This document shows positions 6,820 to 39,000 of a DNA stretch of 52,857 nt, in pieces. The DNA lies in IMG/VR virus record IMGVR_UViG_3300045970_000732, positions 1 through 52,857 of that record; one strand, 5' to 3'. Origin of the DNA: a virus (taxonomy: Duplodnaviria > Caudoviricetes). Position 1 is the first letter of the stretch; every line of letters begins with the position of its first letter. The translations under genes and the position numbers were made by a program. The notes under the pieces are model-generated. The model ran no database searches. It saw only the letters and a program-made list of their open reading frames with translations, and had not been told where the DNA came from.

Positions 6820-6851
6820 ATCGGCCCACGATGCCCCATAAAGGAAAACCA

Positions 6852-7679
6852 ATGATTGAGAATAACCCCCTGAAACAATATTTTCGCCACCCGGCGATTT
6901 ACCTGCGTCTACCAAGTCTAGGCGAGGGGTACGCAAGTGATGTTGTGGAACTACCGACTAACGGTGAGCTTCCTGTTTATCCAATGACCGCGCTTGACGA
7001 CATCGCCACGAAAACACCCGACGGACTGTTCAATGGATCGTCAGTTGTTCATATCATCAAGAGTTGCATCCCCGGTATCAAGGACCCTTGGAAGATTACA
7101 AGCGTTGATATCGATGCTGTTCTTGTTGCGATCCGGATCGCATCTAACGGAGACTCCATGGAGATATCATCTACTTGCCCGGCATGTGGTGAGGGTGAAA
7201 CATACATGGTGAAGCTCCCAGCGATTCTGGCACAAATCAAACCCGGAAATTTCACAACTGAATTTCCAGTCAATGATCTTATGATACAGTTCAAACCGCT
7301 TACCTACAAGGAAATGACCGAGGTTAGTATAGAACAAATGGACCTTCAGAGACTACTAGTTTCCATATCAAATATGGAAGATGTGACTGAAAGGGCCAAA
7401 AAGAGCAAAGAAGCGCTGGACGGTATAACCAAAATGACGATGCGTATCATAACAAAAACCATCGCTCATATCAGGACGCCGGCAGCCTTTGTTGACCAAG
7501 TTGATTTCATCAGTGAATTTTTACAAAACTGTGACAAGAAAACCTTTGAACAGATAAAGGACCATGCTACCGGTCTGAAGTCGATGTCAGAAATCAAACC
7601 AATTCATATCGTGTGTGATTCATGTAAACACGAATACGACCAACCATTCTCTGTTGACGCCGGCTCTTTTTTCGGCTAA
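6852..7679 (+). CDS. gp26: Baseplate hub / tail assembly protein (T4 gp26-like)
   Basis: NPLKQYFR.P.IY..LPS, PMTA.D, two CxxC pairs (CPAC, CDSC), ends ...SFFG. AAGGA RBS before ATG 6852. Confidence 0.75.
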   Translation: MIENNPLKQYFRHPAIYLRLPSLGEGYASDVVELPTNGELPVYPMTALDDIATKTPDGLFNGSSVVHIIKSCIPGIKDPWKITSVDIDAVLVAIRIASNGDSMEISSTCPACGEGETYMVKLPAILAQIKPGNFTTEFPVNDLMIQFKPLTYKEMTEVSIEQMDLQRLLVSISNMEDVTERAKKSKEALDGITKMTMRIITKTIAHIRTPAAFVDQVDFISEFLQNCDKKTFEQIKDHATGLKSMSEIKPIHIVCDSCKHEYDQPFSVDAGSFFG

Positions 7680-7726
7680 AGCTTTTACACCTTGACCATG
7701 AGGGTGTTCAAAAGCTGTTAGATGGA

Positions 7727-7903
7727 ATGGAAGCTGAGTGTAAAGCGATAAAGAAAAGCGCACTCAGTTTATCATGGTATATGCGCGGTGGTGCTCCGTA
7801 CGCAGACGTAATGAACATGTCTAGTGAGGAACGGGTTCTCATCACTGAAATCATCACCTCTAATCTCGAAACCACAAAGACCTCAAAACTACCGTTTTTC
7901 TAA
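7727..7903 (+). CDS. gp51-like baseplate hub assembly protein (58 aa; possibly made as a -1 frameshift extension of the gp26-like ORF)
   Basis: Not in the ORF track (<60 aa). MEAECKAIKKSALSLSWYMRGGAPYADVMNMSSEERVLITEIITSNLETTKTSKLPFF. The frame is open upstream through the end of the previous gene. Confidence 0.75.
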   Translation: MEAECKAIKKSALSLSWYMRGGAPYADVMNMSSEERVLITEIITSNLETTKTSKLPFF

Positions 7904-7969
7904 GTAGTTTTTATCAACCAAATGATGGTTACCCAGGTCGTGGTATGTCATTTATTCTGTTTTCTCTCT

Positions 7970-8692
7970 TAGTGCTGGCTTTCGCCAGCAAGACCATCGC
8001 TACGCTCGGTCTTTATTCTTTTTTATTCTGATGATAAGAGCAGATAATTGGGTTGTTATTAGTTGTTTACAGCCCCATCATGTTTCGGGAGTCCATGGTA
8101 GTGCTTATGCAAGCACTACCAAGGGGAAAGAATTCATGTTCCAATCGCCGTTGTTGTCTCTATCCCAAGTGATTGAGCGTCTATCATCACTTGCCACCGG
8201 TTGCTCTGTAAAGTTTTTATGGATCTGTAGTGACTACTAGCCGATGCCCCGCATCCACACCATATAGATGTGGTAGCTACACCAACCTTCGCCGCAACGC
8301 ACGTCCCACAGATTCAAGACAAAGTAGAGTTCTCTGTGGACTCGTTCAAGGTTCACCTGCCAGTGAGAGCCTTGTCGGTATTCCTAGCGCCTTATTTGTA
8401 TGGTGTCTCTCGACGGGCCATACGGACAATGAGTTAGTCTCGGACGCAAACCACCCCGGTGGTTACTACGCCTACAGTCTGCTCATCGGCACTAGCTATA
8501 CTCCAGAATCTGACGGCACAGCACAACCTGTACAACCTCAAGGAGAATCCCCATATGGGATCAACGGCGATAATACTGAACGAGATGGTCTCTGGTGTTT
8601 GGCGACAGGTTAGTGTCTAAAATTTGGCGACGGGCTAGCGTCTTGATATTTGGCGACAGGTTAGTGTCTTGATGTAATATGAGATGGTCTCT
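7970..8692 (-). ncRNA. Candidate large structured non-coding RNA (unassigned family)
   Basis: No credible ORF. TATAAATA at 8697-8704 points into it. Long-range stems 8144-8153/8562-8571 and 8199-8209/8518-8528. Local hairpins at 8096-8121, 8166-8193, 8305-8339, 8449-8464 and 7973-7990. Ends are estimates. Confidence 0.6.
7973..8027. terminator. Twin hairpins plus T-rich tract: likely terminator for the + transcript and/or 3' end of the - strand RNA
   Basis: TGCTGGC-TTTC-GCCAGCA (7 bp; GAAA loop on the minus strand), then AGACC..GGTCT, then TTATTCTTTTTTATT. Confidence 0.5.
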
Positions 8693-8693
8693 G
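8582..8693. repeat. Three 21-nt direct repeats bracketed by two identical 13-nt repeats
   Basis: TTTGGCGACAGGTTAGTGTCT at 8598-8618 and 8649-8669, variant TTTGGCGACGGGCTAGCGTCT at 8623-8643; GAGATGGTCTCTG at 8582-8594 and 8681-8693. Confidence 0.95.
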
Positions 8694-8696
8694 TGA

Positions 8697-8704
8697 TATT
8701 TATA
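8697..8704 (-). promoter_or_regulatory. T4-type late promoter TATAAATA with no protein gene downstream
   Basis: Exact consensus, oriented into the non-coding structured interval. Confidence 0.7.
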
Positions 8705-8728
8705 GCGATAAAACGAGTGAAAATATTT

Positions 8729-9178
8729 CTATTTCACCTTTTTCATCAGGATTTCATCGGGGTGTTCAACCGGGGGCAAAAACTTGACTCCGGAGATTAT
8801 ACCGTTGAAGTATTTTCTGGTTCCATCAGGCATCCTTGCCCGTAGAACTTCTTCTGTTATTTGGTAGCGAACCTCAGCATAAACCAGTGAGGCACGGGTC
8901 TTGTGTAGGGACTCGATTTCAAACCTGAACTTATCCTTCCCAACAAGCTCAATGGCTTTGTTGATGTGGGTGGACGAACTGGTATAGGTCTTCCAGTCAG
9001 ATTCTTTGATTACTTTTTTCTTATTCACTTTACCCTTGACTGCCTTTCGCAGGTGCTGGTGGAACTGTTTTTTGCCGATATATTCTTTGCCGGTGGCAAT
9101 CTCGGTGATCCGATAGATGAAACCGAACCATTCCGTGATGTCGAACTCATGCTTGAATTCCCAGTGACCTTTGTCCAT
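8729..9178 (-). CDS. Single-domain GIY-YIG nuclease-family protein (149 aa)
   Basis: FGFIYRIT..TGKEYIGKK..ESDWKTYTSSS..YAE..FNG.I; no appended DNA-binding domain. GAGG RBS and CATAAATA (9194-9201) upstream. Confidence 0.85.
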   Translation of the reverse strand: MDKGHWEFKHEFDITEWFGFIYRITEIATGKEYIGKKQFHQHLRKAVKGKVNKKKVIKESDWKTYTSSSTHINKAIELVGKDKFRFEIESLHKTRASLVYAEVRYQITEEVLRARMPDGTRKYFNGIISGVKFLPPVEHPDEILMKKVK

Positions 9179-9193
9179 AAAATACCCTCGCGG

Positions 9194-9201
9194 TATTTAT
9201 G
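9194..9201 (-). promoter_or_regulatory. Late promoter variant CATAAATA
   Basis: TAAATA core in the gap between gp46 and the GIY-YIG gene. Confidence 0.55.
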
Positions 9202-9215
9202 CGTGTGTATGGTTC

Positions 9216-11300
9216 TCATTCGTTTTCCGTATCCGCATCAGTTGAGTAGCTTGTGAACCCGTTGCTTTTCACAACTCGGAGAACCGAACTCACTCGTGAA
9301 GCCAGATCGTCCTTGTGACTGATCAACCATATGGATTTGTGCCGATTTCGTGAGAGGTCCTTTAGCACGCCAATGGAGTTTTCAACGCCCACTGAGTCGG
9401 TACCGTTATCAAGCAGTTCGTCAATGAACATGACATTGATTGGCTTGTATAGGTTCTCCCACACATCGCGGAATGCCCACGACAGCGCCAAGATAACGCG
9501 ATTCATCTCACCCCGTGACAGGTTATGGAAGTCAAGGTCACGCCCAAGCTCTGTGATCTGAACATTCAGGTCATTTTGGAACAGCACTTGATGTGGTAAA
9601 CCGATCTTGTCGAGGTAGTGGGTCATGCGCTGATTCAGGTATGACAGATTCTGGTCAATGATTTTCTTTCTGACGAACGAATCCTTGCTTGTCAGCAGGT
9701 CCAGTAGGAACTTTTGATGCTCCATGGTCTTGTTCATGGCGTTCATGGCGTCAAAAGACACAACCTGAATGGCCTTGGTCTCCATATCCACGATCTGTTC
9801 GGCATACGGGTCAGACTCCTGGTGTTTTGACTCAATCTGGCTGATAAGACTGTCAACCCGGGTGTTGTGTTCAACCGCCTCAACCTCAGTATCATACACC
9901 GTCTTTGGTGGTAGACCTACTGGGACAACCTCAGGCAGCAACTCGGCGATGTGTTCAGCATACGGGTCAACCTCGTTGACCTTCAGTTCAATCTTGGCTA
10001 ATAACGAATCGCTCTCGCTACTGTGGCGGATAGCCTCAGCTTCGGTGCGATAGTGAGTAGAGGGCATCTTGCCAAGCACGACCAGTTCAGCCTCAATCCC
10101 AGATACAAGCGCTTGCGCCTGTGTCAGGTGATTCACGGCGAACGCCAGTGAGGCCTCTTTAGCCTTGACCACATCAGTGTGTTTCTCATCATGGAGGTCC
10201 TGTCCGCAGGCATAGCACTTGTGTTCTTGCAGAGAGGCAAGCTCACCCTCAATCTTGACACGATCATTGGTGTAGCGAACGATATCGGCTCGTCCCCGTT
10301 TCAGTTCAATGTCCTGTGCGGCCTTGTCTCGCACCCGTTGGTTATACTCGGCAACCTCGCGATGTTTGATCAGTTCGGCATCAATGTCAACCCGGTGCAT
10401 TTTCACAGCATCAGCCCGCAGCACCGCAACATCCCGATCACGCTTCTCAGACCAGGCGGTCTGTCTGGCAACCAAGGCGGTGTAGGTGTCAAAGACACTC
10501 TTGTGTTGATTGTAGATCACCAAGTCTCTATGAGCCTGTAGCTCGGCAACAATGTCAATCTTTGAGAGGTCGTCGTATTTTGTGACAAGCGCCTGTAGAT
10601 CAGTCTCCTGCTTCGCCGCCCATAACCGTTGCCGCCTCTTCAGGTTTTCAATCTGTTCAGCAATACGGACATTGGCATCTTCAATCGCCTTCACCCGAAA
10701 CTCTTCGGTCTTGATGGCATCCTTACTTGTGGTCAGTAGACCCTTCACAATCTCGGCCTTCTCAGACAGGATGGTGATACCAAGCAGTTGTTCAATGATG
10801 TCTCGTTGATCACCAGCAGCCATTGCCAGAAACGGCTTGGTGTAGGTGTTCAGAGCAACGATGTGTTGGAACATATCCGCTGACATGTTGATGATCTTCT
10901 CAATCGCCGCCTGAGTTTCTTTGTTCTCTCCTTGAGCATCGTCTGGGGTTTTCAACAGGTTGCTGTTCACATAAAACTTCAGAATATTGGGACGGCGACC
11001 ACGCTCAATCTTGTATTCAACGCTGTCAATGCTGAACTCAAGCGTGACCAACATGCCCTTGGCATTGGTTCGGTTGATCAGGTTGTCCTTGCGGATACCG
11101 TTGATGGGCACACCGAAGAGGGCATATGACAGGCCTTGGATGAGCGAGGTTTTTCCGGTGCCGTTACGAGCACCATCACCACCCAAGTCCAGATTGTCCC
11201 CAAGGATCAGTGTCAGGTCTTGTCGGTCAAAATTGACCGCTTGCGTGATCGCCCCGATACTAAGGAAGTTCCGGAGGGTGATATTTTTTATTTTGATCAT
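9216..11300 (-). CDS. gp46: Recombination endonuclease ATPase subunit (T4 gp46 / Rad50 / SbcC-like)
   Basis: RNFLSIG, Walker A RNGTGKTS, Zn-hook CYAC, signature LSRGE, Walker B FIDELLD, H-loop LISH. Confidence 0.95.
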   Translation of the reverse strand: MIKIKNITLRNFLSIGAITQAVNFDRQDLTLILGDNLDLGGDGARNGTGKTSLIQGLSYALFGVPINGIRKDNLINRTNAKGMLVTLEFSIDSVEYKIERGRRPNILKFYVNSNLLKTPDDAQGENKETQAAIEKIINMSADMFQHIVALNTYTKPFLAMAAGDQRDIIEQLLGITILSEKAEIVKGLLTTSKDAIKTEEFRVKAIEDANVRIAEQIENLKRRQRLWAAKQETDLQALVTKYDDLSKIDIVAELQAHRDLVIYNQHKSVFDTYTALVARQTAWSEKRDRDVAVLRADAVKMHRVDIDAELIKHREVAEYNQRVRDKAAQDIELKRGRADIVRYTNDRVKIEGELASLQEHKCYACGQDLHDEKHTDVVKAKEASLAFAVNHLTQAQALVSGIEAELVVLGKMPSTHYRTEAEAIRHSSESDSLLAKIELKVNEVDPYAEHIAELLPEVVPVGLPPKTVYDTEVEAVEHNTRVDSLISQIESKHQESDPYAEQIVDMETKAIQVVSFDAMNAMNKTMEHQKFLLDLLTSKDSFVRKKIIDQNLSYLNQRMTHYLDKIGLPHQVLFQNDLNVQITELGRDLDFHNLSRGEMNRVILALSWAFRDVWENLYKPINVMFIDELLDNGTDSVGVENSIGVLKDLSRNRHKSIWLISHKDDLASRVSSVLRVVKSNGFTSYSTDADTENE

Positions 11301-12313
11301 AGCTTGGAGTAGATTTCCCGTAGAATTTTGGTGTCGATTGTCTTGCTTTCAATCTTGTCGATGCTCTCAATGATAATCTGGTCCACAGACTCAAACTTGA
11401 TATCACCTGTTGCCCCCTCGCCAGTGACCTGATCAGCCCTCATGGGTATCAGCGTCATTTCACGGATGTTGTATTCGGGTATGAGGGTGTCTCGTATGAA
11501 GTTCGCTTCTTCGTAACTGATGTCGATGTCCAGATGAACACGAGCATGGGTGTTGGGTAGGAGTAACTCTTTGGTTTTCTCCAAAACATCACTGAGCTTG
11601 AACACACGGTATATGGGTTGATCCGGCCATGAGTGAAACTCGGGTGTTTGTCCCCATTCCAGGATCATCATACCACGAGCATCGTCATTGGCATCAGCGT
11701 AGTTATGTGGGAAGGCGTTTCCGATATACCAGATGTTTTTCTTTGCTTGTCGCTTATGAAAGTGACCGCTGAATACTGTTCCAGTTGATCCAAAATCATC
11801 AAGACTGATAATACCATGATCGGGCATCACGATTTGGGCATTCATCAGGAAGTGGGGTAGCTCAAAATGACCAAAAGTGTATGTTGACTTGATCTTTTTG
11901 ACAGTGGCAAGATCATCACCTACCATCCATGGGCAGAACGAGACATTGCCATCGGTGATGATGTCATTCACCACCGTGACATTGGGTAGGTAACCAGCCC
12001 ATGCAACAGAATGGATGTCCCGCTTCTCACGATAGAACAGGTCATGATTTCCTGTGATGAAAAATACCTGAGAAAAGTTCGCATTCAGGATGTCAAGAGC
12101 CTGCATGGAGTAGTGAAGCGTTTGGATGTTGATAGCAGCCCGATGATTATGCCAATCACCACATACGATTGCGGTGTCGCATCCATTAGACTTGGCTGTT
12201 GTGACGAACCATCTGATGAACGCGACACAATCCTCGTTGTGAACCACACTGTTGCCCTTGAGTCCAAGATGAAGGTCCGTGAGAACCGCTGCTTTTTTGA
12301 ATAAATTTGCCAT
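11297..12313 (-). CDS. gp47: Recombination endonuclease nuclease subunit (T4 gp47 / Mre11 / SbcD-like)
   Basis: Phosphoesterase motifs TDLHLG, GDWH, GNHD, GHFE, SGHFH; ATGA-type coupling to gp46. Confidence 0.95.
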   Translation of the reverse strand: MANLFKKAAVLTDLHLGLKGNSVVHNEDCVAFIRWFVTTAKSNGCDTAIVCGDWHNHRAAINIQTLHYSMQALDILNANFSQVFFITGNHDLFYREKRDIHSVAWAGYLPNVTVVNDIITDGNVSFCPWMVGDDLATVKKIKSTYTFGHFELPHFLMNAQIVMPDHGIISLDDFGSTGTVFSGHFHKRQAKKNIWYIGNAFPHNYADANDDARGMMILEWGQTPEFHSWPDQPIYRVFKLSDVLEKTKELLLPNTHARVHLDIDISYEEANFIRDTLIPEYNIREMTLIPMRADQVTGEGATGDIKFESVDQIIIESIDKIESKTIDTKILREIYSKL

Positions 12314-19491: not shown

Positions 19492-20142
19492 ATGGAAAAC
19501 GACACCTTCATCAACGTGGTCAATAACGCAGCCCCAACAAAAGTCCCGGGTCTCAGTGATATCACTACCGCTATCAAAGAGAAGCTAGGTGGAATGTCGG
19601 CCAGCCTGAATTCCCTGACTGGATCAGTAGGTGCGCTTGTAACCAAGGGCCTTGACGCATCAAAATTACAATCAGGCTTGACAGCACTGACAAATGCCGG
19701 CCTTGACCCGGCGGCACAGGCGAAATTGAAGGCGGCAATTGGTTCAATGGGCACCGGCATAAAACTACCTACAGCGGCTACAAACACGACAAATACATCC
19801 GAACAGAAGGCTGGCTTGTTCGCTCTTGCTGGTGCCAATGCGAAATTCGCGTTCCCCTCATCCGATAGCTTTCCGAAGCTTGGTGACGCCAAGATAAAAA
19901 TGCCGACTGCTGAAGAAGCAAAGAAATATGACGACAACAAGGCTGCGATTGCAGCGGCGGAGGAAGCCTACTTCAAACAGCGCATCACCACTGGCAACGC
20001 CCAACAAAAATATGAAGAGGCGAAAAATACACTGCCACAAGGCGATCCGACTGTGGAATCACTCAAATCAGTCTGGCTGGCCGAAAACGAAAAGCTCATA
20101 GCCGCTGAAAAGACGCTAAAAGCTCGTCAGGCCAACGCATAA
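19492..20142 (+). CDS. Hypothetical protein with C-terminal coiled coil
   Basis: 216-aa ORF abutting the previous stop. Confidence 0.6.
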   Translation: MENDTFINVVNNAAPTKVPGLSDITTAIKEKLGGMSASLNSLTGSVGALVTKGLDASKLQSGLTALTNAGLDPAAQAKLKAAIGSMGTGIKLPTAATNTTNTSEQKAGLFALAGANAKFAFPSSDSFPKLGDAKIKMPTAEEAKKYDDNKAAIAAAEEAYFKQRITTGNAQQKYEEAKNTLPQGDPTVESLKSVWLAENEKLIAAEKTLKARQANA

Positions 20143-24035: not shown

Positions 24036-27000
24036 ATGGCCCCAAGAATCAGAACCCTTACATTTTTGCCGGAAATCTTCAAGACCGAGACAAACACTCA
24101 GTTTTTACAAGCAACACTGGACCAGCTAACTGCCCAGCCTAATCTTGAGCGAATTGAGGGATATGTCGGTAGTAAGTTCGGGTATGGCGTTGACGCCACT
24201 AAGAACTATGTCCTTGAGAGCACCAAGCCGCGGACCGATTATCAGCTGGCCCCGGCAGTGGTATTCACCAAGACGAACAACAGCACTGCCCAAGACTTCA
24301 TCAGCTACCCTGGTATTATTGATGCTCTGAAGGCCGAAGGCGGAGTCACAAACGATCATTCTCGCCTGTTCGGCAGTCAAATATATTCCTGGGACTCGTT
24401 TGCTGACCTTGACAAGATCACAAACTTCAACCAATACTACTGGTTACCTGAAGGACCCGAAGCCGTTACTATTGCCTCGTCAATCGTGTATAGCCAGGCT
24501 GCGTATGAAGTTACCGACGAAGTTACGAGCTACGCCATCACTGTAGATGGTCAGGCAACTCCGGTAAATAATCCTAACATTACGCTGATGCGCGGTGGAT
24601 CGTACACATTCAAGGTGTCGCAGGGCTCGCCGTTCTGGATTCAAGGCTCACCTGGTCTTACTGGGTACAGCGCCACACAGACAAACCTACAGACCCGTGA
24701 TGTCGTCGGGGTCACAAACAACGGCGCGTCCACCGGTGAAATCACCTTTGATGTGCCAAGCAATACAGCGCAAAGCGAGTACACTTCACTGCCAAATCTC
24801 ACTTCGAACCCATCGTTTACTGACTTCATTCTTGACTTTGTAAGCACAACACCATTTGCTGATATAGACGGAAAATTAGTAAGTGAGTTTGTTAATGGTA
24901 TCGACGGGGTTACCTCGATCAATGAAATGAACATCATGTTCTATGGTACCGCTGATCACAAACTCAATTTTTATACGGTTCAGTATGACATAACGAGTCC
25001 TGGGTCGTATACCGACCCTGTTATTAGACTGATAGCAGGGGCACTTATTCCAGAAAATTATAGAATTACCGCTGCTTCAGGTCTTGAGTATTCCAATCGC
25101 TCCTTCGTCAAGAAACCATCTGCTGATGTGACACTGATTCCATATCTCAGCACAATCCTTGATACGCTATACTACCAAGACGGCACTTCACCGAGTAAAG
25201 TTGGTATCATCAAAATCATTGATAGTAACAGTACCCATCAATTGGACATCACTGATATCATCGGTCAGAAAGCATACACCTCTGTCAATGGTGTGACATT
25301 TACAAACGGGTTGAAAGTCACCTTCGTGGGTGATGTGTATCCATTGGAATACAAAAACACACCGTTTTATGTCGAGGGTGTTGGTACTGCAATTGAACTA
25401 CTACCAGTAACAGACTTCGTTGCCCCTGAATTATTCACCAGCGCATCATACATACCATTTGACACGCAGGCATTTGACATTGGCAACTTTGACAGTAGCC
25501 TATATATCCCGTTGACACCTGACTACTTCACCATTGCCAGAAATGCCTCAAGCAAGAATGCATGGTCCAGAAGTAATCGTTGGTTCCACGTGGATGTCAT
25601 AAATGCGACTGCCACTCACAACAACAAACCAGAGCTTGCCACACTATACACAACAACTGCGAACAAAGCAAAGCGCCCAATTATTGAATTTTATCCGAAT
25701 ATTCGGTTGTTCAATTCCGGTGTCGTCGGTAAGAACCCAGTGGACTTCATTGACTTCCGTAGCACAGATGCCTTTGCTGATTGTGCTGGAAAGACACGCT
25801 ATCATCCTGATGTGGCATCGTTCACCGACTCGACGGCAGTGATTGCCGCCGCAACCACAACCACAACAACCACAATAAACCTATCCACTTCTGTGATCAC
25901 GGGTTCACTAGTAGTGGGGCAGTCTGTTGCTGACGCTGCTAATGTACTTCCATCATCCGCAGTGATATCTGCGCTTACTACTGTGACCTCCGCCGGATTT
26001 ACAAGAATCACCGGTGCTACCGTAACCTGGTCCGGCGACCACACCATTAGCACAACGACAACCTCTATAGTGACAACGCCCGACAGTGCCAACAACTACG
26101 AGTTATTTGATGGCGCCCGCATCATCTTCGCAGCAGATACAAACGCCGGTGTCAGAAACAAGATTTACCAGGCTAGACTGTCTGTGACGACACCAGGTCA
26201 ACAATTCATCACCCTGACTGAAACAAACGACAGTGTTGTCAACGAAGATGATCAGACATTTGTGTATCGCGGATACCAATACGCCGGAAAAGATGTTCAT
26301 TATCTTGGTGGCTACTGGTCAGACGCTCAGCAAAAGTCAATGATAAATCAAGCACCACTGTTTGATGTTTTTGATGACAACGGGATAAGCTTTGGTGATA
26401 CGTCGGTATATGCTGGCTCATCGTTCAAGGGCACGAAACTATTCGCCTATGGCATCGGCAGCGGCACTGATGACTCGGTGCTTGGGTTCCCACTGCGCTA
26501 TGGCTCGGTCAACAACATCGGTGATATCAGCTTTGACATCTCACTAAACATAGACACCTTCTCTCATGTTGTGAACTCACTTCCAGTCACGCAGAAGGTG
26601 AACACCGGATTCGTCCATCATTCTCACTTGGGAATGGGTACGATAGAGCGTCATATTGGATGGCAGTCGGCAATCGCCAGAAGCGAACAGTATCAAATAT
26701 TTGACTTCCCATATTATGCCGCACTTCCTAAAGTCATGGTATGTGATGTTGCAGCTAAATCTGCTTCAGTAAGCAAGTGGCCCACAGTCAAGGTGTATAT
26801 GAACAATGTGTTGATGAACAGCACCGAATACACACTGACCATCGGCACTTCAACGACCACAGTGACTTTGCTCGGAACCATCACCACCGATACAGCTATT
26901 CTAGTGGCGGTGTTGAGCGATCAGGTCAGTGCCGTAGCATACTATGACATCCCTACCAACTTCAACAGCAATCCATTGAACGCTGAAATGCAGGTGGCAA

Positions 27001-30000
27001 ATGTCGGAGACATCCGCCGTCATTATCAGTCAATATTCCATAACTCCCCTGACATGACAGGCGACTTGTTCGGGTCCAATAACTACCGTGATCTACCGAA
27101 CCAAATACCATATGGAACGAGCATCATCCAAAACAGTGCGTCATTGGTGTTGCCTGGAATATTCCTTAGAAAGAAAAATCATAATCTGTTCAACGCTCTG
27201 TTGTTCAACAGCAGAGAATACCTGACATTCAAATCTCTGTTGACTAACACCGTTGCCAATAGCGATTACACTGTGTCATTGACACCGTCAGATATGCTTG
27301 ATGATGCGATGATTCAAATCACCGCTGCTAAATCCGATACTGGGTCATTCTTCTGGAGCGATATGCTACCGTCCAAGGCGGCATTCATCTCTCATAGCTA
27401 CTTCTTCGCAAACTCAATGGACACCAGCGTGTTCCCACTGAGTAGAATATACGATTACACCACGGCGAATTACCATGGGGTGTTGGTATATCTGACCAGA
27501 AAAATAGCAGGACGAGTCCGAACCATACAGCTTGTCCGAGACATAGATTACACCATTGAAACGAGCCTGCCTAATGTAACTGTCACACGCGATCTGGCAC
27601 CAGGTGATAAGATCACAGTCAAGGAATTCAACCAGACATACGGCAGTTATGTGCCGAACACGCCTACTAAGATGGGAATGTATCCAGCCTCAGTACCAGG
27701 TGTTGTGCTTGACGATACCTTCATGACTCCGACATATTTTATCCGCGGTCATGATGGTTCCCTCACGAAACTATACGGTGATTACGATTCAGTAAACAAC
27801 CTGCTTGTTGACTTCAGAGACCAGGTTCTACTAGAGTTTGAAAATCGCATTTACAACAACCTCAAAATTTCAGCCGTTCTTCCTATTAGTGAAATGGATG
27901 TGATGCCTGGTTTCTTCCGTGATACTCCATTCAGTTACGATGAAATGATCGAGGTTTACTCCCCGGCATTTCTGAACTGGGTTGGTCAAAACAGAATTGA
28001 TTACAAATCGCAAGTTTACTCTGTGACCGATGAGTTCACCTACAACTATTACCAGACAAAAACTAAAGCTGGTAATGTCACAATGACTCCAGGGTACTGG
28101 AGAGGTGTATATACATATCTCTATGACACCTGCAACCCACACACAGCACCATGGGAAATGCTTGGTCACCGAGACATGCCATCATGGTGGACCGCACACT
28201 ATGGAGCAGCCCCATATACCAGTGACAACTTGGTAATGTGGACTGATCTGGCAAACGGACTCGACTGGAACAACGGCGATCCTGTGACGATCACTTCGGC
28301 TATTCGCCCAACGCTCCTCAGTATGCTCCCTGTTGATTCCAGTGGCAACCTGTTATCCCCCGCTGCCTCAATGGTCGGCAACAGCATCAATGCCAGTTAC
28401 AACCGTGCCTGGAAAGTCGGCGACATGGGCCCTGCAGAGGCAGCATATCGTCGCAGCAGTTCATGGCCATTCGATCTGATGCGTATATTCGCCCTGACAC
28501 AACCTGCGCAGTTCTTCAATCTTGGTATTGATCTGGACACCTACAAATACTCAGCAGAATTCGATCAGAACCTGGTGAACAATCGTAGTCACCTTGTGTT
28601 TGGTAAGATTCAGGTATATGGTTCTGGCTTACCAAAGACAAGCTACCTCAACTGGATAGTAGATTACGAAAAACAAATGGGTATTGATGCGACAACAAGC
28701 GTTTCCGAATCACTGAGAAATATTGATGTTCGCTTGGTCTACCGCCTCGCAGGCTTCAGTGACAAAAACATGCTGAAGTTCTATGTTGAAAAGGGAACAC
28801 CAAATAACAAGAACAGTTCGTTGCTAATTCCAGATGACAGCTTCAATGTGTTGCTGTATGATAACCAATCGTTCAACCAAATAACATACAGTGGTGTCGT
28901 CATTCAAATCACCACCACCGGATTCAAGGTGTATGGTAATTCTCAGGCGTATGCTTACTTCAAGACGCTGACACCAAAAATCAATGGAAACTACGATAAA
29001 GTTACGATTGAAAACATCAGCGTACAGCTAGCCAACGACTATTTCTCTTCGGAGATGCTTGTGCCGTATGGCACCGAATTCGCCAGTGTTCAGGAAGTAT
29101 GCCAGTTCCTTGAGAACTATGGCCGTTATCTCGTTCAACAGGGCTGTAAGTTTGACCTCATTGAAAACGGTCTTGAGATTACATGGCGCCAAATGGTCGC
29201 TGAGTTCGTGTATTGGGTTCAACAAGGGTGGGAAGTTGGGTCTCTCGTAAATATCAACCCGGCCGCAACGAAATTGACCATTGACAAAGACAGCAATATC
29301 GTCCAGCCGCTCACCCTACAACAACAAAACTTTGTGCTGAATCAGGACCTGTATCCGATCCAAGCGTCTGATCTTGTTGTCACTCGTAATAGCACCCTAT
29401 TCTCAGTTAGCCCGCTGCGCCAAGGTGACACCATTAGTTATGGCGTGTTCAACGTCAGTGCTATAGAACACGGAGTCGTGTTTGATAATGTCACTGTGTT
29501 TGATGATGTGATTTACAACCTGTCAACAGGTCTGAGACAGTCACGCATCATCCTCAAAGGAACAAAAACCGCCGCTTGGGATGGGTCTGTTGATGCCCAA
29601 GGCTTCATACTGAATCAGGATAACATACTGGACTGGGATTCTAATACCAAGTACACCACTGGTTCTATTGTCAAGTACAAGAACAAATACTGGATCGCCA
29701 CCAAGATCATCCAAGCAGCATTGACATTCGAGGATACATCCTGGAAACAGACTGACTACAACACCATTCAGAAGGGCTTGCTGCCTAATCCAAGCACACG
29801 CTCATACGAGAGTATCCTGTATTATGATGCGAACAAAGCAAATCTGGAGAACGATGCCGACCTGTTGAGCTTCTCTCTAATCGGTTATCGCCCGCGCGAA
29901 TATCTGAACATCGCTGACTTGTCGGATGTTACTCAGTTGAATGTATATCGGAATCTGATCAAGAACAAGGGAACTGCCATTGCAGCAAACACCTTCAAGG

Positions 30001-33000
30001 GTTCTACACTCTCACAAGACACCATTGACTATGACATATATGAGAACTGGGCCATAAAGACATCATCGTTTGGTGGCGTAATGAACAGCAACTTCATTGA
30101 TGTTCGGTTGAATGAGTCGCTGATGACTGGAAAACCGTCGATCATCGGGCTTACAAACGGTAGCGTAATAGCAGGAACTGAACAAGCAGTGCCAATCCAA
30201 TCACTGTATAACTACGGTAGAGTGGTCACTGATGTGAATGTGCTGCCAACACTACAGGGCTTGTCACATACCGCTATTCTGCCAGACGCTGGATATGTCA
30301 ACTTTGATGATGTGAAAATGTCATCATATTACTATTCGGGAATGTCCGTAGCCAAAGACGCCGCAGGAACCGTTATCCCGTTGTCGCAACTTTATGTTCG
30401 TGATTATGTCTGGTTGGCAAATCATCTTGGCACATGGCAGGTCTACACTCCGGTATCGCTTGGTCAAATTACTACTGCGAAAAATAATCTGAACGGCACA
30501 GCGACAATCACTTTTGCTAAGGCACATTCGCTGGCAAAATATCAACCATTCGCCATTGTCGGCCTCTCCAATGTCGTTGACGGTTATCACACCGTGGCAA
30601 CGATCATCGACGGTTATCGTCTGACTATCAATCTGAATCTGCCATCAACGATCACTTCAGTCACTGGTGTGGCGGTTGGTTTTGCGTTCCAAAAACAGCG
30701 CGTTGATACGCCGGCAAACATCGGTGATCTTCCGTTGGCAGAAGCCGAGTTCATCAAGAATAAGGTGTGGGTTGATGAAGGAATTGACGGTAACTGGGCA
30801 GTCTATCGTAAGAGCATCAATTATCTGCACGAATCATCAATGACGATTGATGCCACCGGTCAATCATATGGCAGTGCTGTCGCATATACTACCAGAGGCG
30901 GCTACCTAATTGGCAATTCCGTCGCAAAAACGATCCAGCGCTACACATTCAATCCACTTGATAACACTTATGGACTGACTGAAACTATCACTGGTACCGA
31001 CGGCTTTGGTAAAATCATTGCTCACGCTGATAACAGGTTTGTTGTCGCATCTGATGCCACTGTGACGGTATACGAGCTTGAAGTCTCGCAACTGGTCAAC
31101 AGTCTAACACCAATACAAACGATTGCGTCCGCTGGTGTCACCAGCATTGCCCTGTCGGGTGATACGAATTGGTTATACTTGGCTAACGCCACCGGCATCA
31201 CGCTGTATCACTTCAATGGGACCACATACATATCGTCAACAGTGTTGTCAACACTCGCTGGTCAGGCATACGGAAAGTCAATCACCACTAACTACTATGG
31301 TGACATGCTCGTTGTTGGCGCGCCATATAAGGCAAACGGATCATTCGCACAGTGCGGTGCTGTATATGTCTACAGCAGATTTGAACAACGCCACGAGGTA
31401 CTCTACGGATACACTTCGTATGATGTCCTTCTGGCTGCTACACAAGGCACCGATGCCACTCTCGTTGATGTCTATGTCAACGGCACAGAAATATCTACCT
31501 ATACTCTGGCAGCAGGTAAGGTTACTATTACATCGTCGGTGACTGCCGGCGATATTGTTCGTGTAAGCGGCAACTCTCTTGTACTGGTTCAGGAATTTGC
31601 TTCCCTTGAGGCTGCTCACACCGGAGTACAATTCGGTAATTGTGTCACCGCAAATCAATCCGGAAACGAAATTCTCGTTGGTGCTCCGTTTGAACTTGTG
31701 ACACAAACAAGTGAAGGTGCCGTATACAGATTTACGGATGGTGGTGCTGACTACGGAACAATCATCGGCACCACAGCAGCAAATGTACTGACTCAGGGTA
31801 CTCTATTGATCAATGGTTATGCCGTTACGATCCCAGTTGGTAACGCCACGGCGGCAGCGACAGCAATCAACTTTGCCAAGATCACTAATGTTCAGGCAGT
31901 AGCCGACTCCGGTATACTCACAATAGGACTGATCAATCTGGCTCTGGCGCAAGCAACAGACAAGCTCACGCTAACAGCCACAACCACTGCGCTCATTCAA
32001 GAACTGGGAATACAGGTTTATACACCGACACAGACCATTACCAATATCCATTCATCTGGTGCCACTCAGTTCGGCTCGCTGGTCAAGTTCAACGATGCTG
32101 ATTCTATAGTCATATCGGCTCCATCGTCTACCAGATTCTCAGGCACAATGTTTGACTTCACAGACGATGAACACGACAACGACACCGTGTTTGATAACAA
32201 CACCACTCGTTTTGTGGATGAATTCAAGAACGCCGGCAGTATGTATATGTATGATTACCTAGGTGTTTACAACGAGACCCTTTCTAAGCCAGGGAAATTC
32301 GTGTACGCTCAGAGTGTCAATGATATTGGCGCTTCCTACGGTCTACAACCAATGTATGGCTACTCCGTTGACTTTCATGATAACCGTGTTGTCGTGGGTA
32401 CTCCGGGACAGCTAAATGGCACAGTGACAACCTATGTGAACGCCACTGGGGTTCGTGACTGGTCTATATTCCGCGCACCAAGTGCCATTGTAGATATCAA
32501 CCGCATTCAGGACATTCAGTTATACAGCGCAGAAACAAATACCACACTGGATCATCTGGACTTCATTGATCCATTACAAGGCAAGATCCTTGGCGCTGCC
32601 CGTGAAAATATTGATGTTGTGTCTAACATAGACCCAGCAGGATACACAACCGGAGTCAAGGGAAACATGGTGTGGGGGAATATGAATGTCGGTCAAACAT
32701 GGTTTGACACCTCAACGACACTCTTTGTCAACTACCACCAAGACGACCTCGTTTACAACAGCAAACACTGGGGAACCGTGTTCCCAGGTAGCGATGTCGC
32801 CGTATACACATGGGTCTCAAGTTCAACACCCCCGGCATCTTACCAAGGCCCAGGCACTCCGTATGATGTCACCAAGTATTCTATTGACTATGTAGTATCA
32901 GCAACAGGAACGCTTGTGCCATTCTATTGCTTCTGGGCACGAAATACCAATGTTGTATATACAAAAGCAGGCAAAACATTGTCTGATTCAAACGTCCAAT

Positions 33001-36000
33001 CGTACATCGCATCCCCGCTAAACTCGGGCGTGTCTTACTTTGCCCCATTGCTACCGAGCGCATTCGCCCTTTATAACTCGGCTGAAAATATCAACCATAC
33101 TGATTCTATCCTTCACGTTGGTTATGCCAACGGTGTGTCTGATGATGTGTCACATTCCCTACACGATCTGATTCGCACCGGGAACAAAGAAGACTTCCTT
33201 CCAGGTCTGCCATCTGAGTCAACAAATCATGTCCCTGAATCATTGTATGATCGGTTACTTGATAGTCTCTGTGGTGTAGATACATTCGGGGCAGTCGTTC
33301 CTAACCCGTATCTGCCTAAGCCTGTACAATATGGCATATTGGCACGACCTAACCAGAGTATGTTCATTGACCGCTTCGGCGCCCTCAAGAACTATCTGAT
33401 GTATGCCAACGCAGTGATGCTACAATATCCAATAGCAGAAACGAAACAACCGTCGATGCTTATGGCATCCGGACCATTCTACGACACAACCAAATACTGG
33501 AGTTATGTGGATTGGTGGGCAACTGGTTATAGCAGCGCAACAAAAGCAATCGTTCAAGTGGCGCAATACGCCGACCTCAGTCCGCTTGCTGCGTACCCGG
33601 GGCTAGTAGCTCAGGTGGCATCAAATGGTGATGGTAAATGGGAAACATACATTTACGATACGGCATGGACTCGAATCGGCCTCCAATCAGGCACGATTGA
33701 GTTTAGCAGCCTGTTGTGGGATTATGCCGCAGGCGGGTTTGGCTTCTCAAATAACTTCTTTGATACCACCCCATTCTCGGAATTCCCATCTGAAGAAACA
33801 CGGCAGATTGTTCGCTCACTCACTGAAGAAATCTACATTGAGGAACTTGCGATACATCGTAACAAGAGCTTGATTCTGTTGTTTGAATACATACAGAACG
33901 AAACTACCGGAGCCAACAACTATCTTCCATGGCTGAACAAGACATCGTTTGTTGATGTCAGTCACACCATCCGTGAATTGAAACCAAGCAAGGTGTTCCA
34001 GTCAGACAACAATGAGTTCCTTGAAGGTTATCTCAATGAAGTGAAACCATACCATGTGGTTATCAAAGAGTTCCTGTTCAAGTACACGAACCTGGATACC
34101 TTCACTGGTGTCATGACCGACTTTGATTTGCCGGCGACATTTGATGCCACTATAGAAAAATTCGTGTCTCCTGCTCTGGTGAACACACTCACCGGAGAGA
34201 CAAACGAATACCTTGCGACCGATCCAATCTGGACCACCACTCCATACTCTTCCTGGTATGCTGAACACGGGCTGAGCCTCACTGGTCTCCCAGACCAATC
34301 ACTGACTACCCTGTCATCCTATATCGCCCTGAACAGCGCAGCATTCTCCGTGGATAACGCCTATGGCTTCCCGACATCAGGCATCATCAAGGTAGATGAC
34401 GAGCATATCGGTTATTCAGTGGTTGATCGCAACGCCAGCACCCTCTCCGGTCTGTCCCGCGGAGCCAATGGCACCACAGTCACCACTCACGTCCCAGGCA
34501 CCGCAGTGATCATGGACCTTCCACCAGTCATCCTGCTTGACGGCGGCCGCGAATACGTTGAGCCACCGAAGATCATCGCCTATCTGGATCCGTCAACCCA
34601 CGCAGCACCATTGCGCCCTGCAGTGCTACAGGCTGTGATGAACCTAGACCAGATCCTACGCATCGACGTAATAGACCCGGGCCTTGGCTATGATGCCCTA
34701 CCTGAGATTTTGATCGACCCGGCAAAGACGGCAGTCATCCCAAGCTCCAGTACAAACACCAACATCGTGTCAAGCAACATCACCATGACAGTGCCATGGT
34801 TCGTGACCGGCGACATGGTCCGCTACGAAACAGGTGCCGGCACAACAGCCATTGGCGGCCTCGTCTCCGGTCAATACTACTACGTAGGCGTTCTTGAAAC
34901 GACACCTAAGCTTGTCTTGGCGCTATACAGCCGATACGCTGATGCCGTGAATAACCTCCGTCGTGTGTCACTGACGACTCTTGGCACCGGTCCAGAACAC
35001 CTATTCCATCTAACGGCCCGTGCCATTGCTGTCGCCACAGCAGAACCGATTCGTGAAAATCGCATGACGTTGCGTTTTGACAGAAGCACCTACAAATCTC
35101 ACATCCAGGATTGGACCTCTGGCGGGCTGTACGGTTCATTCTTCGCAGGAACAATGAACAACTCGGTGACCATCTCAAGTTCGTCGATATCCATGGAGAG
35201 CAGCCAGCCCTCGATTGACAACGTCCTGTCAAGCGGAGCAGGTGTCACGTTTGAAATCGTCAGTTCAACCTCGACAAACGACCTCACATGGTCGTCACGC
35301 ACAAGAATATTGACTGCCACGACATCAGCAGGCATCGTCACCATTGCGAACGCCCCCGGCGGCCCAGCAGGCTCCCCTGATGTGCTTCGTCCATGGGGAC
35401 CAGGTGATGTCGGCCCAATGGTTGGCTTCTACGTTGGAATGCCGATCAAGTTCAATGGTGGCATATTCGGCGGCATCGTCCCAGAAACGATCTACTATGT
35501 CGGCACCATGCTGACAGCTACAACATTCACCCTATGGACAACGCCAACGGGTGGAATACCGACCCTGACAGACACTGCCACTGGTGTTGCACCATGTTCG
35601 TTGTTCGTCGGCGAACTGACCAACACAGCGGTTGTCACCATTGACTACCCGGGTATCCTGCAAGTCACTGCGACCACATCAACCACTAACGCGATCACCG
35701 TGCCGATGACACTCAGCGGACAAGGCGGCACAAAATATTTCTATGTCGGCCTGCCGGTCTATTTCACCGGACCAACATTCGGTGGTATCGTGGAGAACGA
35801 GCAATACCATGTTACTACCATCATTGACCGAGAGCACTTCACCCTATCAAAAACGGATGGCCCATTGACACTGCCTATCATCAGCACCACAGATGCCGGC
35901 GACTTGATCAACCTCGCGGACCTTCACACGACCTACGGCCTGTTCGTAGACGACCGCGTGATATTCACAGACATGCGAGTGAACGCCCCTGACATGATCA

Positions 36001-39000
36001 CCGGCGTTCAGTATACAATCAGAACCCTTGGCAACACTGACTATACCCTCTACGGGGCAGAAATCAACGAAGTCGGACTGACATTCACCGCTACTTCCGC
36101 ACCAGCAACCGTAACCGCAGGAAGCTTTGTTATAGGAACGCAGTACCGAATCAAAGCTATAGGGAACACCGACTTTACTCTCATTGGCGCATCCGCCAAT
36201 GAAATCGGGCTTGTATTTGCTGCCACCGGAGTGGGTACTGGCACCGGTACTGCGTATGGTACTGGAACGGTCAATACGAAGAACCTAGGCGGTCTCATTG
36301 CAGGTACAACATACTACATCAGTAAGCTTGAGACCGGCGGAACATCGTTGACTGTATCAACAGCCCCGGGCATCACTCCGCTAGCTCTGACTACAGCAGT
36401 TGGTACTGCCAACATGACAAGTCAGCAAAAGACTGAGCCATTGACAACTTCAGTTGGATCAATGACACTAAACGTTGGTCTCCCTGTACACCCAGGACAG
36501 ATCGACGGTCAACAGTTTACGTTCTACTCAACTTCTGGGCAGTTCGCACAACCAGTATGGACGCTCACAAAGCAAATCTCCCTGAACATCACAGGGGCCG
36601 TAGCAAACAGTGTTCCAGGTGGCAACTATCTCTCCATAAGCAACCCTCCATATGAGTTTGCTGAGATGTATGTGAAGATGCCAGCCAAGACACCGATATC
36701 AATGCCAGCAACTTACTCCGGAGTTCTAGCTGCTAATACCACATACTACGTGAATGAAATCGGTAGCACCCACGCATTTATACTGAGTACTAACTCGTCT
36801 GACGTTCATACGAATTCGGCTATATCTAGCATTGTCTCTGGCTCGGACAGGTTAGTAACAGTTACATGCGCAACTCATACTTTTGTAAGTGGAGACTTTG
36901 TAACCATATCCGGTGTCACAGGAGAAACCCGATATAATGGGTCATTTACGATTATAGTATTAGACGCAAACACATTTACCTACACTGTAGTTGGTATGGG
37001 GGCACCAGCGGCTGTAATCAATAAGGGAAGTGCCGCTAGACACTGGATAGTTCTCGATGACGCAACCGGGTTCTATCCAAATATGAGTGTGACCCTCACG
37101 GGCGCCATCATTAGCCCTAGCTACTTCAATGGCACGACATGGGTTCAGAGTATCGCGGTCAATACGGTATATTACATAAAGACTGTTGATCACACCAATA
37201 ACCGAATCACTCTAGGTGTGCTCCCGGACGCTGGAATAGCAATCCCAGTGGCCGACGCTGTTTCCCCGAATGCCACATCGCTTCAAATCTCCGGTACGCC
37301 ATGGATCAGAATATCCGACACCGTTGGTGGGGCCGTGAAGGTGTTGTCTGCTTCTACCGCAGCGTACAACGACATCACCCTGCTCCAGACACCAGACACC
37401 CCGGCGCCAATCTTTGATGTGAGTTACAAGCTAGGCGGATACCGCGCTGTCATCCGTGAAGCTGGCAATGGCTGGGCCATTGGCAATCAAGTGACGATCC
37501 TCGGCTCTGCCCTCGGCGGAACATCCCCGGCGAACGACATGGTCATCACGATCAACGAAGTAAGCGCCCTTGGTGAGATCCTGTCATTGATCATCACAGG
37601 CGACCCCGCAGACATCACTGCGAAATACTACCTCAAGGTCATCTCTATGACCGAGTGTGAGGTGTATTCTGATCCACTGCTATCAATCCCAGTCAACAAG
37701 ACTGCGTTTGAGGTGTTTCATGGCATCAAATCAACGACGATCACTGCCACAACAGTAACCACAAATGTGCTGACGGCAGTAAGTGTGGCAGACTTCAGCA
37801 TCAATGATTCGGTTGTGTTCACGGGCACAACATTCGGTGGTATTGAATCTGGACGCACCTACTACATCAAGGCAACATCACCGTTGACCCTATCAAATAT
37901 CGTCGGTGGAACTACAGTGACGCTCTCGTCCGCCACAGGAACCATGACGATGGCTAAGGCAGGTGACTTCGTGTTGTTGCCAGAACCGTTCTACTTCCAA
38001 CAGTCTCTGGTGAAATACAATCACAAGGTGTATCAATGTATCATAAGCAACAACGATGCCGAGTTCATCTTCGGTAAGTGGGAGCTACTTGATTCTGGCA
38101 ACCGCCGCCTGAATGCGCTGGACCGTATCAATGGCTATTACGAGCCAACTGTCAATATGCCTGGCAATGACATCACTCAACTACTGGATGGTGTCGAGTA
38201 TCCGAACAGCATCTACAAAGGCAATGCGTTCAAGCCAGAAGATCAGTTTGATCTTGATGTGTTGCTCAGCGACAAGCCATTCTACCCGACAGAAGTGACT
38301 ACCACATCTGTTCTGTGGAACGGAACGACCTACATCGCCACAGCCAACACACCTACATATTCTGCCATTATCAACAGCACTGATGCTGTTCTGTGGAATC
38401 AAGATATCAAATCCGGTCAGCCACTTGGAATGACAGACATTGTATTCTCTGGTGATCTGTATGTCGCAACAACTACAAACTTGGCTATGCCAATACTTAC
38501 GAGTGTTGATGGTCTGAATTGGAGTGCAACCGGTGTCTACACACCGTGGGGCGCCACACAACCATTCACCCCTGTCAGCCTAAGCGCATCAGGAGCAAGA
38601 ATGTATAGTGTCACCTGGCACGACGGACTGTTCGTTGCAGTCGGTGATGTGATCATGACCAGTACCGACGGAATACATTGGAACGAGACATACAAGTTCT
38701 GGGACAACGGACTTGAAAACGTGTTGCTATCAGTACAACACACGACGATTACCACTACTGTAACCATTGATCAGTTCATTGCTGTGGGTTACGGTGCTGG
38801 AACTGGCGCCATCATTGGACAACGCATTGGTATCATGCTCACAAGCTTAGATGGTCAAACATGGCTTCCATCTCCAATGGCATCAACAACCGGATTAGCT
38901 GGTATAGCAGCAAGCGGCACGACTAACGTGGTAGTTGGAAACGACAATGCCATATATTGGTACGAACCGGGTAGCAACTGGACATTAGTAGCTGGACTGA

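Follow-up and report, generated by a model that had tools for sequence, protein, structure and literature searches.

A covarying hairpin family in front of a large structured RNA in uncultured giant phages

Genes and features of the locus

The window, by which we mean the whole stretch of DNA analysed, is an entire IMG/VR record of 52,857 bases with an estimated completeness of approximately 15%. Its source is a T4-related uncultured giant phage. By gp26, Sinorhizobium phage Phosso and others are its nearest cultured relatives, with identities of only some 32%; every one of the 95 records compared was <60%. The locus is flanked by a gp26-type baseplate hub gene on the plus strand (6831–7679) and, on the minus strand, by a gene for a SegE-like GIY-YIG homing endonuclease of 149 amino acids (8729–9178; PF19835, E 3.4e-36) and by gp46- and gp47-like genes (9216–12313); elsewhere in the window a single plus-strand open reading frame (ORF) encodes 6,343 amino acids (24036–43067). 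The SegE-like gene (segE) lies directly upstream of the hairpin array described below and on the same strand, and the approximately 800 bases between it and the convergent gp26 unit contain no minus-strand ORF of 60 amino acids or more. A tRNA scan of the whole window found none, and blastn searches with positions 7900–9200 and with the RNA of a typical relative gave no match among 50,697 phage records.

In relatives the usual upstream gene encodes a PDDEXK_15 nuclease (PF24608; phrog_244, 'RusA-like Holliday junction resolvase'), and the RNA usually lies downstream of it. This gene is fully substituted by segE in the window, in L013–L019 and in L169–L172; in L005 (1475–2543), L173 and L020–L027 segE replaces only the catalytic N-terminal part, and a 151-aa remnant ORF is left. 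The start of segE in the window is preceded by a 7-bp palindrome, CATAAATACC-GCGA-GGGTATTTTATG (9179–9210, minus strand), with late-promoter-like motifs on both strands. A TTTTTTC run (7667–7673, plus strand) occurs at the end of the gp26-like gene and is followed by a 58-aa ORF (7727–7903) in the –1 frame relative to that gene ((7727–6831) mod 3 = 2).

Layout of the array

On the minus strand the order is TATAAATA, a hairpin of type A, three units of type B, a second type A hairpin, 19 bases, and the hairpin that opens a long conserved RNA, so that the leader in the window holds five hairpins in the order A-B-B-B-A. The three 21-nt cores reported in the initial annotation were recovered at 8598–8618, 8623–8643 and 8649–8669 (plus-strand text TTTGGCGACRGGYTAGYGTCT), with start-to-start distances of 25 and 26 nt. 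On the plus strand copies 1 and 3 read GACA-GGTTAG-TGTC and copy 2 reads GACG-GGCTAG-CGTC, in agreement with the compensatory A-T to G-C swap that had been claimed for copy 2. In RNA-strand order, unit 1 (8649–8669, minus strand) is AGACA-CUAACC-UGUC-GCCAAA, unit 2 (8623–8643) is the compensatory copy with stem GACG/CGUC and loop CUAGCC, and unit 3 (8598–8618) has the same 21-nt core as unit 1; the consensus is AGACR-CUARCC-YGUC-GCCAAA. The cores are flanked by an exact 13-mer, GAGATGGTCTCTG in plus-strand text, that occurs at 8582–8594 and 8681–8693, 99 nt apart. On the RNA strand both copies, the promoter-proximal one (8681–8693) and the RNA-proximal one (8582–8594), read CAGAGACCAUCUC, with the hairpin GAGA-CCA-UCUC, and belong to the type A hairpins collected in alignment A4.

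The unit pattern, with up to three mismatches, has three matches in the window against 0.29 expected, a number reached in none of 100 shuffles. The 13-mer, with up to two mismatches, has five matches against 1.55 expected (reached in one of 100 shuffles), and only the two at the array are exact. When three random substitutions were introduced into the 21-nt unit, all four pairs remained Watson–Crick and one pair was changed on both sides in 1.3% of 400,000 trials. A search for sequencing runs with this sequence returned five DNA entries and no RNA entry. Of four runs compared with the window, the two probable source runs contain the same array. Contigs of these runs break or branch at 8508–8541, the most conserved segment of the RNA, and extra short contigs of other depth occur; probably, several related phages in one sample share this stretch. 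Between the hairpins and the RNA, the window carries the 11-mer ACGGCGATAAT (8564–8574, plus strand); L005 (2056) and L173 (3082) have it inverted, in the interval from the B unit to the promoter-like motif that comes next.

Late promoter and transcription unit

An exact match to the T4-type late promoter, TATAAATA, is located at 8704–8697 on the minus strand and reads leftwards into the array. Promoters of this class carry TATAAATA about six bases ahead of the start point; the window element belongs to the class by its sequence and is a predicted promoter. ATAAATA-type motifs stand just ahead of most gene starts in the window. The right-hand 13-mer on the minus strand (CAGAGACCATCTC, 8693–8681) begins after three intervening bases, and the ATG follows after four bases behind the ATAAATA-type promoters at 20139, 3870 and 46758; the equal offset asserted in the initial annotation therefore holds to within one base. 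Including a further case at 2079 (minus strand, as is 3870), these late promoters lie 4–5 bases before ATG, and thus late messages there would be leaderless or nearly so. Among relatives, a late-promoter-like TAAATA/TAAGTA precedes the first hairpin by 3–7 nt in L013, L017, L019 and L169. The type A hairpin of most relatives is embedded in a translated tail with no canonical late promoter ahead of it, and so its transcript context differs from that in the window.

In intrinsic terminators, a T run follows a GC-rich stem of 5 bp or longer. The stems here have 3–4 bp and a scan of 7600–9300 found no terminator-like site, which rules out reading the hairpins as intrinsic terminators. With no such terminator between segE and the array, transcripts from the segE promoter (9200) could also run through the array. 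The type A motif was likewise ruled out as a promoter, since nothing downstream of it is conserved at a constant distance. The A-rich sequence directly adjoining the RNA (ATAAAAAT) is unlike the TAAATA late promoters of the same phages. Downstream of the 3' hairpins of the RNA, a GATAAATGAATAGTTACGG-like motif is conserved in many relatives (alignment A2, columns ~725–760; window ~7940–7955, minus strand) and is late-promoter-like on the RNA strand.

A large structured RNA behind the array

Conserved blocks and RNAalifold delimit a large, structured non-coding RNA on the minus strand, about 550 nt long (7973–8575, approximate ends). Its landmarks, all on that strand, are the P1 hairpin (8546–8562), the motif CUCCUUGAGG (8545–8536), an invariant long hairpin (8097–8120) and a 3' hairpin with a GAAA loop (7973–7990). 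The conserved blocks recur in L005 and L007–L012 in the same relative strand throughout, six of these loci having been reached via gp26 (46–52% identity), and the invariant 10-bp hairpin of the RNA has matches in at least 120 IMG/VR stretches. For 37 members less than 80% identical, RNAalifold predicts 77 pairs, of which 52 show compensatory change, and many U-G pairs fit the minus strand only. The initial annotation had placed the array at the 5' side of a predicted RNA; it turns out that this structured RNA is real and that its strand is the minus strand.

The window has no Rfam match at the gathering score, and searches of 7600–9300 at E values up to 10 and of five related loci at E values up to 1 returned chance-level matches only. 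The hairpin motif likewise has no Rfam model, and a limited full-text literature search turned up no paper on the RNA or the motif. Like GOLLD and ROOL, the window RNA is long, highly structured and phage-borne, but it matches no Rfam model; the GOLLD and ROOL families are not known to have a dedicated upstream hairpin motif. A comparison of all alignment columns with the hairpin and its flanks found no covarying partner of the hairpin loop in the RNA, only low-complexity runs.

The type A hairpin in relatives

In relatives, type A is a 13-nt hairpin, AGAC-ACCAA-GUCA, with a stem of 3–4 bp and an ACCAA-like loop. Of 70 dereplicated leaders, 67 have a motif within three mismatches of AGACACCAAGTCA at a distance of 44–122 nt ahead of the CUCCUUGAGG of the RNA; L080 and L084 give two more similarity matches (at 182 and 187 nt), which probably arose by chance. 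The leaders without a match are L085, which carries GACACCGCGTC, L043, which matched under another anchoring, and L111, which has none. At a similar place in L111 (~150 nt before the RNA) we observed AGCU-CACCU-AGUU, a single case whose pairing would include one G-U and be possible on the RNA strand alone.

Alignment A4 consists of 79 instances picked by similarity alone plus the window's second copy (four mismatches), which was added by hand, giving 80 rows of which 65 are distinct. All 195 stem cells pair, eight of them are changed on both sides (GAG/CUC, GGC/GCC and UAC/GUA), and none is changed on one side only. The observed covariation score is reached in none of 500 shuffles, and shifted registers pair in 6–34% of cells. 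On the RNA tree, the GAG/CUC stem of the window arose apart from that of L042, L075 and L110, and a GGC/GCC stem is found in L080 and L084 and again as the second hairpin of L017.

Type A is contained in the coding tail of the PDDEXK nuclease gene in most relatives. It is in frame 0 in 64 instances and reads D-T-K/T-S there, whereas the rest of the Ser/Thr/Asn tail varies. Compensatory variants lead to a different peptide (ETNS, GTKP), the copy in L103 is in another frame, and 12 instances in eight leaders, the window included, lie within no long ORF; together these observations argue for selection on nucleotides. In five contigs of 221–349 kb, the type A pattern has six matches against two for a control pattern, and three of the six, each from a different genome, fall at the RNA locus. 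Type A is specific to the RNA locus and is no genome-wide signal. Its information content is limited to the 13 nt, and no –10 element stands at a fixed distance downstream.

The initial annotation described the flanking 13-mers of the window as brackets of the array. Their identity and 99-nt distance stand, but they are more than brackets: judged by the alignment, they are a local variant of an older type A hairpin that is nearly universal at this locus. Amplification at 24–27 nt spacing is seen in several lineages (L005; L010, L039 and L062; L033 and L053; L019; and the window), and where the region is coding it stays in frame (24 or 27 nt). Most relatives have a single type A and no array, which indicates that the array of the window is a lineage-specific amplification.

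The type B unit and its distribution

Type B has a 4-bp stem, a 6-nt loop and an RCCA-A tail, and occurs in one to three copies per locus. Its carriers are the window (three), L005 (one), L173 (one), the L017 group (one) and L019 (three at 26-nt spacing, the third without the tail). They were sought by similarity (up to five mismatches) over 152 loci, by a structural search over 566,919 bases, by two pattern scans of IMG/VR and by a segE-based metagenome search. A looser unit pattern gave 14 loci in IMG/VR, of which two are real and both were already known; the segE search of metagenome contigs gave 12 loci, with L169 and L173 the only new leader types. Comparison of copy number across relatives, which the initial annotation had put forward, thus yields one to three B copies in one clade and a single type A in most relatives.

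Alignment A3 holds nine B copies from five loci. Its rows were re-collected with a pairing rule, the loci having first been found by similarity alone (up to five mismatches, no pairing rule). All 36 stem cells pair, five of them with both partners changed. Pair 2 occurs as AU or UA and pair 4 as AU, GC or CG, with three further pair types. None of 500 shuffles reaches the observed score, and shifted registers pair in 8–44% of cells. Stem covariation, also put forward in the initial annotation, is thus borne out, with 36 of 36 B cells and 195 of 195 A cells paired and no one-sided change in A. At the level of the alignments, selection for base pairing is shown in both hairpin types.

In every B carrier segE has replaced the nuclease gene, wholly or partly. 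The carriers placed on the RNA tree all fall in one clade (eight rows, SH-aLRT 99), L019 being absent from the tree. The sub-clade L013/L015/L169/L170 has segE and two or three type A hairpins but no B. Confinement to one RNA clade means that the tie of B to segE is inseparable from descent and that few independent events lie behind B; on this tree, B is a clade-level innovation. B has AGACAC and the GUC arm in common with A, and its tail (GCCAAA, ACCAAA or GCCAUA) resembles the A loop ACCAA. We infer that B was derived from A. The 26-nt period, including the linker ACAUCAAGAC, is common to the window and L019. In both L005 and L173, the only B unit follows the segE stop by about 80 nt, stands upstream of a promoter-like motif and is separated from the RNA by about 570 nt.

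Pairing in a single strand

Three different stems coexist in the leader of the window (GACA/UGUC, GACG/CGUC and GAGA/UCUC) and three in that of L017 (GAC/GUC, GUCA/UGAC and GGC/GCC). Stems that differ and yet remain complementary within one leader favour single-strand pairing over half-sites in double-stranded DNA. The initial annotation had preferred hairpins to double-stranded iterons, and the relatives, with their two-sided changes only and different stems in one leader, lean the same way. Both A3 and A4 show the two-sided changes, beyond shuffled and shifted controls, that characterize conserved RNA stem-loops. No G-U cell occurs among the 231 stem cells of the two hairpin types, and the questions of strand and of RNA versus single-stranded DNA therefore rest on context: the hairpins lie on the sense strand of the RNA gene and, in the window, L013, L017, L019 and L169, just after a late promoter.

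The leader folds on the minus strand with –26 kcal/mol (z –1.32), an energy matched by 20 of 200 shuffles, and the z value on the plus strand is 0.01. With such weak stems and an ordinary folding energy, the hairpins probably need a bound factor. The minimum-energy structure is a nested fold, in which unit 1 pairs with unit 3 and 13-mer with 13-mer. This fold is not conserved, as the three different stems of L017 cannot form it, and the local hairpins are thus the conserved solution.

Comparison with known systems

CRISPR arrays have repeats of ~23–50 nt, which resemble those of a prokaryotic array, with unique spacers of similar length. In the window, 21-nt cores at a 25–26 nt period leave 4–5 nt between cores and hence no spacers. 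A search for exact matches to the pattern AGACNCYARCCNGTCGCCAWA in one genome from each of 185,579 species found 15 loci with a single match each and no array; the matches lie mostly in GC-rich, apparently coding sequence (by eye) and represent chance hits. The initial annotation was thus right to set CRISPR aside. What the array has in common with CRISPR repeats, solitary repeat units and RNA anti-CRISPRs is hairpin-bearing direct repeats behind a phage promoter, with no neighbouring cas gene.

The boxB-type nut sites of lambdoid phages and the boxB/boxA leaders of rRNA operons are short stem-loops with a conserved pentaloop that follow a promoter and are read as RNA; lambda-type boxB has a 5-bp stem, a GNRA-like pentaloop, a boxA and an N-type antiterminator. 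Such leaders resemble the window in placing short stem-loops after a promoter and before a long untranslated or terminator-rich stretch. However, the stems of the window have 3–4 bp instead of 5, the loops (ACCAA, CUAACC) are not GNRA-like, and up to five copies occur; by stem length and loops, the hairpins fall outside the lambda-type boxB/nut class. The 5'-terminal stabiliser hairpins, such as that of the ompA 5' UTR, are comparable in that the first hairpin of the window would start within a base or two of the predicted late start, but most relatives have the hairpin in the interior of a longer message, and the stems are far weaker.

ToxI-type antitoxin repeats of type III toxin–antitoxin systems have units of ~34–45 nt and lie beside a toxin gene. 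They and their phage mimics are, like the array, spacer-free tandem RNA repeats, and the array too could be cut to unit length. In contrast, the unit of the window is 25–26 nt, there is no toxin gene among its neighbours, and the older type A hairpin is usually single. Judged from the neighbours, an RNA gene downstream and segE upstream, the array does not belong to this class. An RNase P-type minihelix (stem plus RCCA tail) was also dropped, the stems having only 4 bp and the ACCA of type A lying in the loop. Iterons and operators are direct repeats in duplex DNA with a conserved half-site, helical phasing and an adjoining initiator or repressor gene; the varied complementary stems, the 25–26 bp spacing and the neighbours (segE and the RNA gene) place the array outside this class as well.

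Proposed role of the hairpins

On balance, we think that the array is the 5' leader of a minus-strand late transcript that runs from TATAAATA into the ~550-nt RNA, and that its five stem-loops form one locus-specific family of recognition modules. Related phages keep the hairpins by matched base changes, and the hairpins are thus most likely RNA signals that serve the large RNA; their function is probably that of recognition or processing modules in the RNA leader. The late transcript would start after TATAAATA (8704–8697, minus strand), with the first hairpin at its very 5' end. Type A would be the ancestral module, and type B a derived module of one clade, amplified to three copies in the window. 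The stems, too weak alone, would be recognised by a protein or ribonuclease through both their sequence and their shape. The bound factor may mark where the upstream message gives way to the stable RNA, and its effect may be to define or protect the 5' end of the RNA or to help the polymerase through untranslated RNA. Repeated copies would allow multivalent binding, as is suggested by copies at 24–27 nt that arose independently in several lineages. The SegE-like 149-aa neighbour, which displaced the usual upstream gene, is an unlikely partner.

Two other accounts concern the extra copies. That only single hairpins matter, the five-copy array being an idle by-product of slippage or unequal recombination, agrees with the single type A and missing B of most relatives, with a copy number from 1 to 5, and with the identical cores of units 1 and 3 and the exact direct-repeat 13-mers, which could mediate duplication. 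We regard it as unlikely, given that the stem of unit 2 is kept by a two-sided change (p ~0.013 by chance), that the whole 26-nt period with linker ACAUCAAGAC is common to the window and L019, and that amplification recurs independently in several lineages, in frame where coding. Somewhat less likely still is that the B units belong to a SegE cassette, either as a 3' UTR control of segE or as an element carried or protected by the mobile gene. B is indeed found only at segE loci (window, L005/L173, L017 group and L019) and in none of ~60 dereplicated leaders that lack segE, and in L005/L173 the unit lies close behind the segE stop and far from the RNA. However, B is missing from the segE loci of L020–L027 and of the L013/L169 group (whose protein is 78% identical), as it is from more distant segE genes at other loci; the B carriers all belong to one RNA clade, which confounds the association with descent, and the AGACAC 5' half and GUC arm of B recur in type A, which is unlinked to segE.

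Two further accounts move the hairpins from RNA to DNA. Covariation is blind to the difference between RNA and single-stranded DNA, no G-U was found in 231 cells, and recombination genes adjoin (gp46, gp47 and the resolvase-like nuclease), all of which would suit hairpins that form in single-stranded DNA as a signal for initiation of replication or recombination, or for hairpin-dependent transcription at a module boundary. Against this, stems of 3–4 bp cannot extrude from duplex DNA, the motif lies in a transcribed stretch on the sense strand of the RNA gene, and no initiator gene or AT-rich unwinding element was identified; we consider such a signal improbable. Double-stranded sites, an operator or iterons for a dimeric protein that reads inverted half-sites, seem very improbable to us: GAC-N5-GTC and GACA-N6-TGTC are palindromic and stand beside a promoter, but several half-sites coexist per leader and are still mutually complementary, a spacing of 25–26 bp does not correspond to an integral number of helical turns, the sites stand anywhere between 44 and 122 nt from the RNA start, and the motif is not reused elsewhere in the genomes.

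Returning to the RNA-leader reading, a bolder extension of it, which we put forward as a long shot, is that the hairpins and the large RNA form one system, with the hairpins as dedicated docking or substrate elements, either as the cleavage or assembly site of an RNA that is catalytic or serves as a scaffold, or as the place where a protein is loaded that builds an RNA–protein particle late in infection. If this is true, the five-copy array of the window would be a natural multivalent version of the signal.

Implications

The RNA behind the array represents an uncatalogued class present in at least 120 IMG/VR stretches of uncultured giant phages, and the hairpin is a first handle on its biogenesis. 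The motif predicts the place where a protein or nuclease would bind, and it offers a pull-down bait together with natural variants of one to five copies. Furthermore, the type A hairpin provides a clean case of selection at the nucleotide level that overrides the encoded peptide.
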